Assembly (NCBI GenBank): GCA_022705625.1 | Contig: JAKJEE010000002.1 | Coordinates: 1 to 44,612, forward strand | Direction: 5' to 3' | DNA: 44,612 nt | Origin: Patescibacteria group bacterium | GTDB lineage: Bacteria; Patescibacteriota; Minisyncoccia; UBA6257; JAKLIH01 | Shown here: piece after piece, positions 1-4,575 of the stretch | Layout of the letters: every line of letters begins with the position of its first letter | Numbering within the stretch: the first letter of the stretch is position 1 | Program-made: the position numbers and the translations under genes | The notes under the pieces: model-generated | Database searches by the model: none | What the model saw: the letters and a program-made list of their open reading frames with translations, nothing else | What the model was told of the DNA's origin: nothing

Positions 1-2456
1 GATTGATTCTTGCCAAACATTTCCCCTGGCCCACGTAATTTTAAATCGATTTCAGCCAATTTAAAACCATCATGGCAATCAACCATGGCCTCTAATCTTT
101 CTTTTGTAGTTTTACTATTTGACTCGGTAAAAAGAAAACAATATGATTGATAATTACCCCGGCCAACTCGACCACGGAATTGATGAAGTTGAGATAGTCC
201 AAAACTTTCCGTGCCCATGATCAACATGACGCTCGCATTAGGAACATCAATACCAACTTCAATAACGGAAGTTGCAACCAATAAATTAATTTCATTATTA
301 TAAAACTTTTTCATAATCAATTCTTTCTCTTTGGATTTCATTTTACCATGAAGCATTTCAATTTGAAATTCGGGAAAAACTTTTTTCATCTTTTCCACTT
401 CTTTCTTGACGGCTTTAACTTCATAATTTAAAAGCTGATCAAAAGAAAATAAATTTTTGGCTTTTTTAGTGCCGTCTTCATTGGTTTCTTCAGCAATTTC
501 AATCCGAGGGCAAATCACAAAAGCTTGGCGTCCATTTTTTATTTCTTGGCGAATAAATTCAAACATTGGTTTCTCTTTTGATTTGGTCACGATTTTGGTT
601 ATAATAGCTTTTCGATTTTTAGGCATTTCGTCTAAAATTGATAAATCCAAATCACCGTAAATTGACAGTGCTAATGTGCGTGGAATTGGCGTAGCAGTCA
701 TGGATAAAAAGTGCGGAAGCAATACGCTATCCAAACAATCCGAACAACCCGAACGATTCGAATATTCTGAGTTCAAAACTCTTTTGGGTTTTAGATATTT
801 TTGAGTAAAATTTACTAATAAGCCCAGCTCTAAATTTGTTGTTTTTAAATATCTCAAAATTTGATTATAGTCAATTTTCTCGATATATGGCTTTGACTTT
901 AACTCAACAATAATTTTATCTTCGATAATAAAATCAGCAAAATTTGATTTTATATCAGCAATTTCGATCGGGACTTCTCGCTGAAAGTTAATATTATTTT
1001 CTTTTAATTTTTGTGCCAATAAATCGCCATACTGCCTTTCGCGACAAAATCTACCAATTTCATCGTGAATTTCAAGGAATATTTTATTCAACTTAAAAGA
1101 TAAATCTTTTTCAATAATTTTATCATTTTGATGTTTTGTTGCTTTCTCTTCGGATAATTCGGATGGGTTCGGGTTGTTAGGGTGGCGAAGCAGTTCTTTG
1201 CGCTGTTTGATACCAAAACGATGTTGTTCATCAATAATAACCAAACCTAATTTTTCAAAATCAATATTTTTTTGGATTAAAGCATGGGTGCCAACTACCA
1301 ATCACTGAGTGCCCTCTTTGATACTCTTTAATAAATATTCTTTGGAAACTTTACCTTCGATAAAGCCATCTTTAATTTGAACCCCTTCGCCAGTCATTAA
1401 AGCAACTTTTATATTAAATGGTTCCAAATATTTTATAATACTTTGATAGTGTTGTTTGGCTAACACTTCGGTTGGTGCCATAAAAGCCACTTGTCAACCC
1501 TGTTTTATACATAATAAAGCCACAGATACTGCTACAATGGTTTTACCCGAGCCAACATCGCCTTCCAGTAAACGATTCATTGGCGATCCACTTTCTAAAT
1601 CTTTCATCACATCCCAAATGGCTTTCTTTTGAGAATTGGTTAAAATAAAAGGTAGAGTTGATAAAAATTGCTTTGTTAAATCAATGTCGGCTTTAATTTT
1701 TGGAGCTTTATTTTTTGACATCTTGTCTTTGATACGCATTAAATGAAGTTGAGTTAACAACATTTCTTCAAACACAAAACGATTGCGAGCTTGAGTGGCC
1801 TCGTCAATTGTTTCGGGAAAATGGATTTTGTGCAAAGCATCTTTTAAATTAAATAATTTATTTCTTCTTTTAGTTTCGGCCGGTAAATAATCAATAAATT
1901 CTGCGTCGAATGTATCTAATAATCTTTTAACATAATTGCGCAACATTTTAGAACTCACTCCACTGGTTTCTGGATATACGGGGATTAAGCGGCCAGTATG
2001 CTTTAAATTGTTAATATCAATATCTTCGTAATCTTCTTTGCCAGAAATAATTTCAAAAGCTGGACTTTGGAAAACAAAATGTTTGCCCTTGGTTTTGGGT
2101 TTGCCAGAAACAGTAACAATCGTGCCGTTTTTAATTTGATTAGCAATAAACGGCTGGTTAAACCAAACTAAATCAGCCGACCCAGTGTCATCAATAATTT
2201 TACCTTCGGTTAATAGTATTTTGCGTCGATAAGTTCGATAGCTTTTTAATTTTTCAACTTTACCAATAATGGTGGCTGGTTCATCAAGTTGCAAATCAAT
2301 AATTGGCTTAATATTAGTAAAATCTTGGTAACGAAAAGGAAAATGTCACAATAAATCTTTTATGACATTGATGTTTAAATTTTTTAGTTTGTCTTGATAA
2401 TATTTGCCAACCCCATAGAGGTTAGAAATATCATCGGTTAGTTTTATATCGGACAT
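1..2456 (-). CDS. recG: ATP-dependent DNA helicase RecG. The C-terminal end runs off the window. Read with TGA=Trp (in-frame TGA at 1302, 1494 and 2346).
   Basis: The frame is open from ATG 2454-2456 down to position 3, with no TAA/TAG (checked codon by codon for 3-1301). Motifs present: GDVGSGKT, VIIDEQHRFG, MTATPIPRTLA, QLHQFRGRVGRG. ORF-track pieces 1302..1490 and 1494..2294 share this frame. Confidence 0.9.
723..1187 (-). other. In-frame ~155-aa insertion in RecG between motif II (DEQH) and motif III (TATPIPR). It encodes a PD-(D/E)XK nuclease-like GxxExxY/PDDEXK_3-type domain and is bounded by imperfect ~35-bp inverted repeats.
   Basis: The translation IGRFCRERQYGDLLAQKLKENNINFQREVPIEI..ADFIIEDKIIVELKSKP..QILRYLKTTNLELGLLVNF..KRVL matches my recollection of the GxxExxY family, including the D...ELK catalytic-type motif. 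The normal RecG spacing here is about 20 aa. The inverted-repeat arms are 735-770 and 1146-1184 and share the core AACAACCCGAAC. Confidence 0.6.
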
Positions 2457-3294: not shown

Positions 3295-4575
3295 TTAAAA
3301 TTTTAAAGACGCCAATAAATCATCTTTTTTGACTTCGATTTGTTCTTTGGAAATTAAATTTTTTACTGTTAAAATTCCTTTAGTTTTTTCATCTGGACCA
3401 TAAATAATTAAATATTTACAGTTTTTTGATAAAGCATACTTGATTTGATCGCCCAATTTATCGGCCGACAAATAGATTTCGGAATTAATATTATTATCAG
3501 TCAAAAATTTTAACAATTCTAAGCAATCACCTTTCATGGTATCGTCAAACAAAGCAATGAGAACTGATTTCTTTTCATTTTGTATTTCTTGATCATCTAA
3601 AAGACCAAAAATTCTTTCAATGCCGATAGAACCTCCACAAGCTGGAGTTTTATTGCCATTAAAAATACTAGTTAAACTATCATATCTACCGCCACCAGCA
3701 ATAGTTGAACCTAAATCAGGACTATAGAATTCAAAAATAGTGCTAGTATAATAGTCGAAACCTCTAACTAAAGTTTTACAAAAATAGATATTGATATCCG
3801 ACAAGAAAGGTCTGGCTAAAGCCATAATAGTATTAATTTGATTAATGATAGTTAAAATTTCTGGTTTATCTTTACAATAATTTTCAAAGTCAGATTCATT
3901 GCTTAAAATCTTTAAAATATTTTTGGAAATAGTTTCATCAAAATCTTTTGATTTTAACTCTTCTAAAACACCGTCAAAACCAATCTTGTCTTGTTTATCA
4001 AGACAAGTCATAAAAGTTTTTAAATCTACTATACCAAAACTTTCTAAAAATTTCTTCAAAAAATCTCTGGAGCTAATTTTTAAAGAAAGATTTTTCAAAT
4101 TAAAACATTCCAGAGCTTGCGCTAAAGCTAAGAACGTTTCCACTTCAACTAAGTTTGAGCTAGAACCGATGGTATCAATATCACATTGATAAAATTCACG
4201 AAATCTACCCCGCCCGGCCCGTTCGGCACGTCAGACTTTATCAATACAATAACGTTTAAAAACTTTGGGCAAATCATTTTGATATTCAGTGTAAAAGCGT
4301 GATAAAGGAACGGTAAGGTCATAACGAAGACCAAGATCGCTACCTTCTTCGGATTTATCGCCTCGTTTTTGAATTTGAAAAATAAGCTTTTCGTTTTCTT
4401 CTTGACTGCTAAATTTGCCATTTAAAACCTCAATTCGTTCCAAAACGGGTGTGTCAATTGGATCATAATTAAACTTTTCAAAAATTTGTTTTATCTGATT
4501 TATAATTTGTTCTTTTTTTCTAAGCTCATTTGGCAAAGTATCTCGCATACCAGATGGCGGTTTTGAACTAATCAT
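3295..4575 (-). CDS. hisS: Histidine--tRNA ligase (426 aa), with one in-frame TGA=Trp at 4231-4233.
   Basis: ORF-track pieces 3295..4143 and 4231..4575 are in the same frame. Motif 2 reads [25 protein letters not shown]. The GGGRYD motif 3 region is present. Confidence 0.95.

Follow-up and report, generated by a model that had tools for sequence, protein, structure and literature searches.

The first gene in a 44,612-nt stretch of DNA from a Patescibacteria group bacterium (assembly GCA_022705625.1, contig JAKJEE010000002.1, positions 1–44,612; hereafter the window) encodes the helicase RecG, and it contains an in-frame insert that encodes a nuclease domain between helicase motifs II and III. 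The recG coding sequence occupies positions 3–2456 of the minus strand, with its ATG start codon at 2454–2456 and its C-terminal end lost at the start of the window. Pfam identified the domains RecG_wedge, DEAD, Helicase_C and RecG_dom3_C in the protein, superfamily 2 (SF2) helicase motifs I–VI are conserved in an alignment of RecG proteins (alignment A1), and protein searches found 75–84% identity to other Patescibacteria RecGs; the wedge, the six motifs and the C-terminal domain that characterize RecG are therefore all present. About 170 residues separate VIIDEQHRFG from MTATPIPRT in the window RecG, compared with about 20 in its closest relatives. The host sequence resumes on either side, with motif II (DEQHRFG, 1212–1232, minus strand) upstream of the insert and motif III (MTATPIPRT, 675–701, minus strand) downstream of it. 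The whole inserted element spans 723–1186 on the minus strand and consists of a left arm, a short spacer, the nuclease open reading frame and a right arm. Comparison of filled and empty sites in the window and three related loci (L001, L002 and L003) gives a net gain of 450 nt (150 codons) over the empty site. An original prediction, made from the bare sequence of the window, had placed the insert at 723–1187 without stating the strand, and these coordinates fit the element as it is delimited here.

The nuclease domain and its flanking arms

The core of the insert (768–1121, minus strand; 118 residues, KIIEKDLSF...KPKRVLNS) is a PD-(D/E)XK nuclease domain of the GxxExxY / PDDEXK_3 type. It matched Pfam PDDEXK_3 (PF13366) with E = 7.5e-23 (81.6 bits, cutoff 22) and NCBIfam TIGR04256 GxxExxY with E = 7.7e-23 (81.1 bits, cutoff 35), and these strong profile scores bear out the family assignment of the original prediction. 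The catalytic pattern E...D...(D/E)xK is intact, as had been proposed for its D..ExK part, with E28 in CRERQY, D63 in ADF and E73-x-K75 in VELK. E28, D63 and K75 are invariant in an alignment of the nucleases (alignment A2) and are retained in all RecG-embedded copies. An AlphaFold2 model of the domain (predicted local distance difference test score, pLDDT, 93.8) has the topology H-H-E-E-E-H-E-E, which is the minimal PD-(D/E)XK core and includes the alpha-beta-beta-beta-alpha-beta arrangement of that fold. The nearest solved structures in Foldseek were Cas4, lambda exonuclease, MGME1 and Hjc, with EndA-like cores also among the neighbors and tRNA-splicing endonuclease folds at lower rank. Probabilities were as high as 1.0 but TM-scores were just 0.45–0.57, and the domain is therefore not closely related to any characterized enzyme; no solved structure that matches it by sequence was found. 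By profile, motif and predicted fold, the domain is a member of PDDEXK_3 / GxxExxY, and its nuclease activity is predicted. The anti-phage defence models of PADLOC gave no match to the element, and PHROGs gave a single weak match to a family of unknown function. A spacer of EKATKHQND-type sequence (1122–1145, minus strand) connects the left arm to the domain; it contains no in-frame ATG, GTG or TTG, and stand-alone relatives have a methionine at the same point.

The insert is bounded by inverted repeats, which are translated as linkers. The left terminal inverted repeat, or upstream linker (1146–1186, minus strand), encodes RHPNNPNPSELSEE and is composed of the units CCTAAC-AAC-CCGAAC-CCA-TCCGAA-TTA-TCCGAA; its outer end is degraded relative to that of L002. 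The right terminal inverted repeat, or downstream linker (723–767, minus strand), encodes EYSNRSGCSDCLDSV and is made of four 9-nt units, TCGAATCGT TCGGGTTGT TCGGATTGT TTGGATAGC, with an outer end that reads ...GGATAGCGTA. An arm is thus about four 9-nt units with TCCGAA or TTCGGA, and the linkers translated from the pair are HPNNPNPSELSEE and EYSNRSGCSDCLDSV, in line with the original prediction that the repeats encode two linker peptides. The core of the arms (740–754 versus 1167–1181) is 15 nt long and 93% complementary, with partial matches flanking it. When one mismatch was allowed, the 12-mer AACAACCCGAAC occurred in the 44.6 kb only at the two element ends, a count that was reached by 0 of 100 shuffles, and local alignment of the arms gave z = 5.8 against shuffled sequence; the inverted repeats are significant by both measures. 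A stem formed by the two arms closes the insert in both the minimum-energy and the centroid RNA folds, and the 521-nt region taken as a whole has an unexceptional folding energy (z = −1.7). The junction residues of the window insert are ...KELLRHPNNPNPSELSEEK... and ...VLNSEYSNR.../...CLDSVLLPHF (minus strand). The DPNNPNxSELSE linker of the left arm recurs in distant RecG inserts and in a RadA insert. At approximately 2790–2830 of L002 (recG of GCA_022709715.1), a second, tiny GC-rich hairpin (CCCCCACACCAACC / GGTTGGGGTGGGGG) is nested in the element's upstream linker. This hairpin, which encodes SPTPTIGWGGGQ in frame, is absent from the window copy and may be another small in-frame palindromic insertion.

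Three in-frame TGA codons of recG (1302–1304, 1494–1496 and 2346–2348, minus strand) are read as tryptophan because TGA and TGG exchange at conserved tryptophan columns of recG in the window and its relatives L001–L003. The same exchange ruled out code 25, in which TGA is glycine, for the window. TGA is also a sense codon in many other reading frames of the window. Reassignment of UGA to tryptophan was first reported for the Patescibacteria family JAKLIH01 in 2026 (PMC13092985; bioRxiv 10.64898/2026.05.24.727570), to which the window therefore most probably belongs.

Distribution of the element among genes and genomes

Filled, empty and remnant versions of the insertion site are present among RecG relatives. 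P0121, from contig JAKLIH010000006.1, which is the closest relative of the window, has the insert at this position too, and its upstream linker is longer. Alignment of related RecGs, proposed as a check in the original prediction, revealed an empty site (...RKELINKHND-LLPHFLSMTATP) in P0122–P0125 (713–721 residues), which are 78–83% identical to the insert-bearing P0121 (alignment A1); the corresponding empty-site DNA is available at L003 2725–2832. In P0126 (L001) the two linkers are joined (RNPNNPKTSNLPEEDEDENG-CSGNLGDGH) and the nuclease is deleted, leaving an in-frame remnant of linkers only. PF13366 is carried by about 25 of the 120 best-scoring RecG clusters, in hosts that are just 43–51% identical. 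Because close relatives are empty and distant carriers are patchy, the insert is neither universal nor confined to one lineage, and the occupation of the motif II/III site in distant hosts together with its vacancy in close relatives of P0121 is the pattern of homing.

RecG inserts were found at three sites: the majority lie between motifs II and III, one lies between motifs I and Ia (P0136) and two are in the wedge domain (P0207 and P0211). Those at the motif II/III site represent two nuclease subfamilies, GRFCRExQY and GxGHKExVYQ. Elsewhere in RecG, P0129, P0144, P0151 and P0180 contain low-complexity pairs, for example TQTNADYTQTN...SPRESAFSPRES (A1 columns ~180–200 and 1040–1090), which resemble translated remnants of the second subfamily (GCGGAT-type motif) that consist of arms only. 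L002 (5369–5673) and L003 (4190–5128) both have a gene for a tyrosine recombinase (Phage_integrase) downstream of recG; since it accompanies filled and empty recG alike, it probably has no connection with the insert.

Searches with the insert returned mostly Patescibacteria proteins of about 130 residues, plus fusions. A scan of one genome per species identified 372 relatives, and 80 loci were analyzed: approximately 60 hold stand-alone copies, approximately 10 hold internal in-frame copies, approximately 8 are N-terminal fusions and 2 are C-terminal fusions. Internal in-frame hosts are RecG (two sites), RadA (just past the Walker A motif), a membrane glycosyltransferase-like protein, an RseP-like protease and a pilin; Dxr is also among the in-frame hosts, and the N-terminal fusions read into pilins, DHFR or archease. 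Among 1.84 billion representative proteins, 7,159 clusters matched a profile at E ≤ 1e-3, and the best matches add enolase, GatB, FolD and several GT4 glycosyltransferases as in-frame hosts. A further candidate host, P0356 (2,422 residues, 12 'stretches'), was rejected as a false positive, an unrelated repeat protein. At L014 (2707–5292), a single membrane glycosyltransferase-like open reading frame holds two cassettes and a third, arm-only remnant, all in frame; the two cassettes are of different subfamilies and have different arm motifs.

At each of the 10 stand-alone loci checked, the copy sits between two complete genes, as in prfB|ftsE-like, dprA|topA and, repeatedly, nusG|rplK, and in none of these 10 loci was a gene split out of frame. 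Stand-alone copies are oriented with their neighbors in 50 of 53 cases upstream and 46 of 54 downstream. The nusG–rplK (L11) spacer is occupied in at least 10 species (L043, L044, L047, L048, L053, L071, L072, L075, L077 and L078), and this part of a highly expressed operon is thus occupied recurrently and perhaps site-specifically. The idea that copies reside in intervening sequences of rRNA genes was rejected, with Rfam searches around 20 stand-alone loci giving tRNAs only and no rRNA.

Flanking inverted repeats with z ≥ 4 accompany 66 of 84 genome-locus copies and 67 of 74 metagenome-locus copies (median z of 10 in the metagenome set), and terminal inverted repeats of the kind that define a transposon or a miniature inverted-repeat transposable element (MITE) are therefore a feature of the family. 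Well-delimited arms read (A)GCGAT-NCGAAT-NNN-ACGAAT-NNCAT-CCGAAT-GAT-CCGAAT and are mirrored downstream; their four motifs are spaced 9–10 nt apart, about one helical turn, and the left arm ends 0–40 nt ahead of the start codon. The arm motif differs by nuclease lineage (CGAAT, CAGAT or CGGAT, with GCGGAT in the second subfamily), an indirect sign that the encoded enzyme may act on the ends. The match between an element's own arms had a mean score of 33, compared with 21 for the arms of other elements and 14.5 for shuffled arms, and the own partner ranked first in 12 of 76 cases. Nuclease-less hairpins, in which both arms enclose a loop of 10–61 nt, numbered about 11 in approximately 440 kb of sampled flanks. 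These short versions (65–120 nt) also occur in frame within host proteins. Second copies and nuclease-less hairpins lie near some loci, and the window has one copy. At L045, a stand-alone cassette is flanked on either side by a full hairpin of ~96 nt (2869–2964 and 3398–3493), each with a 25-nt loop in place of the nuclease gene, an arrangement suggestive of a non-autonomous form in tandem or nested copies.

Rough neighbor-joining analysis of the nuclease domains placed the majority of RecG motif II/III inserts in one clade, and the RadA insert, which has the same DPxNPNxSEL linker, is nested within it; this suggests that the element jumped from recG to radA. P0129 and P0137, also at the RecG motif II/III site, were placed in another clade, which suggests that they are an independent gain, and the copy at the second RecG site groups with pilin-associated elements. 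The metagenome collection yielded close relatives of the window copy (100% and 85% identity) solely in recG, and the window copy is therefore an old resident and not a recent arrival; recent transposition of the window lineage was rejected on the same scan. The original prediction of a mobile nuclease module that had invaded a helicase gene is thus supported, and none of the three outcomes that would have counted against it was obtained. The profile matches, the empty sites and the family-wide arms (about 130 of 158 related loci) all agree with it. Beyond the reach of the bare sequence were the long vertical residence of the window copy, the make-up of the arms as arrays of a conserved motif and the wide, mostly intergenic occurrence of such elements in Patescibacteria.

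On this comparative evidence, the window insert is a member of a mobile-element family and not a lineage-specific RecG domain. The reading that we favor, with moderate confidence, is that it is a resident copy of a compact selfish nuclease cassette with terminal inverted repeats, which survives in essential genes by being translated through. Survival inside a gene would depend on a reading frame that stays open through both arms, and the host protein would then contain an additional nuclease domain that folds independently and is attached through two disordered, hydrophilic linkers, the translated arms. In RecG, the loop between motifs II and III would be the tolerant location. The nuclease may recognize the CGAAT arrays, an unoccupied target or both, and then cut the DNA; host recombination and repair could subsequently copy or move the cassette, by analogy with homing or with repetitive extragenic palindromes and their associated tyrosine transposases (REP/RAYT). 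The paired arms may also curb expression or favor deletion, yielding remnants.

Probable translation of the insert and selection on it

All of the intragenic copies found are in frame and contain no stop codons. In five pilin fusions, the element starts right behind the stop codon of the upstream gene and, as checked in the DNA, the pilin part (G|FTxxELL) lacks a start codon; the only way to make the pilin is therefore translation that begins at the nuclease start and continues across the right arm. DHFR and archease fusions are organized alike in their stop-to-stop reading frames. In the pilin operons (L008, L010, L011, L020 and L025), the cassette replaces the start codon and leader, and the prepilin motif G|F(T/S)xxELL comes directly after the right-arm linker; the nuclease in these fusions may be a leader peptide of approximately 150 residues, releasable by prepilin peptidase. 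In recG, no in-frame ATG, GTG or TTG is present from motif II to the nuclease domain, so the nuclease could be made only as a part of RecG. Structure prediction, another check that had been proposed, gave a consistent picture: in an AlphaFold2 model of a RecG relative the nuclease is a separate, confident domain (pLDDT 85–90) and both linkers score below 50, which suggests that the linkers are disordered tethers.

The window and L002 were compared at synonymous and nonsynonymous sites. The proportion of synonymous differences (pS) was 0.61 in the host N-terminal part, 0.62 in the nuclease and 0.61 in the host C-terminal part, and these matching values indicate that the nuclease has co-diverged with its host, by vertical inheritance from before the split between the window organism and its JAKLIH01 relative. 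The proportion of nonsynonymous differences (pN) was 0.088, 0.074 and 0.058, respectively, and purifying selection has therefore been as strong on the nuclease as on RecG, whereas constraint on the upstream linker is relaxed (pN 0.24). The right arm had 0 changes over 9 synonymous sites where approximately 5.5 were expected, which indicates that it is constrained at the nucleic acid level.

These data bear on an alternative that was raised in the original prediction, namely that the stem marks an intervening sequence that is cut from the recG mRNA, by RNase III or by the encoded nuclease, with subsequent re-ligation of the exons. Pairing of the arms in both predicted folds, nucleotide-level conservation of the right arm and the lower-ranked resemblance of the core to tRNA-splicing endonuclease folds are all compatible with such excision. 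However, excision would destroy the expression of the pilin fusions, in which the element supplies the only start codon of the host, and the DHFR and archease fusions are laid out alike. The selection seen on the recG nuclease, which has no start of its own, would be impossible if the insert were spliced out before translation. Moreover, the intragenic copies are uniformly open, the 10 stand-alone copies checked split no gene and the linker-only remnants remain in frame. Rfam searches of window positions 600–1300 gave two chance-level matches (E = 0.38 and 0.7) and no intron or other RNA family. We regard RNA-level excision as highly improbable.

Post-translational removal of the nuclease by an unusual intein or other protein-splicing element would suit the location, since the nuclease is inserted in frame at a conserved position of a helicase, where inteins are typically found. 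No Hint or intein domain was detected in the insert, for which Pfam reported PDDEXK_3 and a sub-threshold, overlapping match to the PD-(D/E)XK family HSDR_N_2. The junction residues vary among hosts (RecG, RadA, pilin and others) and lack the Cys/Ser/Thr...His-Asn + Cys/Ser/Thr pattern of splice junctions, and the linkers are predicted to be disordered. The intein reading is effectively refuted by these missing defining features, as the original prediction had maintained.

The main rival to a resident selfish cassette is domestication of the RecG copy: the nuclease of a formerly mobile cassette would now serve host DNA repair in RecG, and in RadA, for example as a structure-specific nuclease attached to a branch-migration helicase, like the Hjc/RecU resolvases or AddAB, Dna2 and Hef. 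In its favor, the recG nuclease is expressed solely within RecG, its pN/pS has been as low as that of RecG over a long co-divergence and its catalytic residues are retained in all RecG-embedded copies, in hosts down to 43–51% identity. RecG is also a recurrent host, the RecG-lineage element is found in RadA, another branched-DNA enzyme, and the Foldseek neighbors include the Holliday-junction resolvase Hjc and Cas4/RecB-type nucleases. However, the domain is absent from the closest RecG relatives and the nuclease alone has been deleted in one of them, the same cassette resides in hosts that have no role with DNA (enolase, GatB, FolD, glycosyltransferases, RseP and pilin leaders), and the synonymous constraint on the right arm would be unneeded for a pure protein-domain role. 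Domestication is unlikely to be the whole story, although the strong selection on the long-resident RecG copy fits it.

Inferred mobility and comparison with known systems

The sites and the arms of the element are also relevant to a different explanation, in which a homing-type gene cuts unoccupied alleles and is copied by recombination, and the arms act in the transcript as a stem that hides the ribosome-binding region of the nuclease or insulates the operon, thereby keeping a toxic nuclease at low levels. Sites are lineage specific (the RecG motif II/III clade, the nusG–rplK spacer in at least 10 species and a glycosyltransferase clade), and the loci are conserved, essential and co-transcribed. 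The lack of a visible target-site duplication, the position of the left arm 0–40 nt before the start codon, the stem in the predicted RNA fold and the co-variation of the two arms of an element also count in its favor. Against it, the sequence of the motifs, beyond their pairing, is conserved across elements that are 45–60% identical, and their placement at intervals of about one helical turn points to protein binding. A purely regulatory stem would also leave the scattered nuclease-less hairpins unexplained, and in recG, where the stem would have neither a ribosome-binding site nor a start codon to control, the arm is conserved nonetheless. We therefore consider this explanation quite unlikely for the element as a whole.

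Several points weigh against a selfish mobile cassette. Mobility is inferred from the distribution of copies only, and no near-identical copies at different loci were found. Searches of the 44.6-kb window for further copies (tblastn of the domain and motif-array scans) recovered the recG site only, and no relatives were found on IMG/VR viral contigs. No direct repeat is present at the well-delimited ends of about 10 elements, so that the target-site duplication expected of a transposon or MITE was not seen; the recG junction itself is too diverged to judge. The neighbor-joining tree is based on 118 residues and has no support values. Strand transfer is beyond a hydrolytic nuclease of 118 residues acting alone. 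A long-resident, vertically inherited recG copy (pS ~0.6) under strong purifying selection is unlike what the usual decay cycle of homing genes would leave, and it fits a host-level role at least equally well.

Beyond the window copy, we tentatively propose that the family could represent a class of Patescibacteria mobile element: a cassette of ~0.45 kb that has a minimal PD-(D/E)XK nuclease only and also exists in nuclease-less versions, keeps a reading frame open through its ends, lives in essential coding sequences (RecG, RadA, enolase, GatB, FolD and pilin leaders) and is expressed within the host protein, with a nuclease that may recognize CGAAT arrays and drive copying via host repair. 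The PDDEXK_3 family has been listed with unknown function (PMC3424549). In the literature searched (GxxExxY, PDDEXK_3 and palindromic or in-frame insertions in the Candidate Phyla Radiation, CPR), no description of such an element, its flanking arrays or its in-frame residence was found, most subscription journals being outside the coverage. The element provides a first biological context for GxxExxY / PDDEXK_3, a family of ~7,000 clusters at 50% identity with no known function. It also explains some of the insertions and low-complexity linkers that had been puzzling in the proteins of ultrasmall bacteria, a point that matters for annotation and structure modeling. The copies supply natural helicase–nuclease and enzyme–nuclease fusions together with a short conserved DNA motif array, and the cassette might serve as a compact pair of nuclease and recognition site.

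Rickettsia palindromic elements (RPEs) are approximately 150 bp long, reside in frame in genes and encode no enzyme (Ogata et al., 2000; reviewed in PMC10969869). Both RPEs and the element described here are palindromic selfish DNA found in frame in unrelated housekeeping genes and translated as an extra peptide that is compatible with protein function, and the short nuclease-less versions (65–120 nt) behave like RPEs. The element differs in having an intact nuclease gene under selection, motif-array arms, a Patescibacteria host and mostly intergenic copies. If our reading is correct, it would be a nuclease-bearing, apparently autonomous counterpart of RPEs, a selfish DNA that persists in essential genes because it is translatable, not because it is spliced.

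In REP/RAYT systems (REPtrons), the RAYT is an HUH/Y1 single-strand transposase and the REPs are hairpins of 20–40 bp with a GTAG/CGTC tag, located outside genes (PMC8266576, PMC3479197). As in those systems, one small nuclease gene lies between inverted palindromic repeats, gene-less repeats are dispersed and mostly intergenic, and inheritance is largely vertical and long-lived. In contrast, the nuclease here is of the PD-(D/E)XK and not the HUH type, the arms are motif arrays of ~40 nt and the element is often translated within genes.

Homing genes are the third point of comparison. Like them, the element is a small nuclease gene in conserved sites of essential genes and operons, with lineages tied to sites, a patchy distribution and occasional jumps to new sites. 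The PD-(D/E)XK fold is also used in homing, I-Ssp6803I being a homing enzyme of this type. LAGLIDADG genes occur in rRNA insertions of CPR bacteria (PMC11270868). Unlike homing genes, the element is not removed from the product by an intron or intein, and its terminal inverted repeats are a feature that homing genes can do without; moreover, no decay is seen in recG despite long vertical residence, and cleavage of empty sites is putative here. Set beside these systems, the element is a variant of selfish mobile nuclease and palindromic elements, with an unusual combination of features and a wide, unrecognized distribution.

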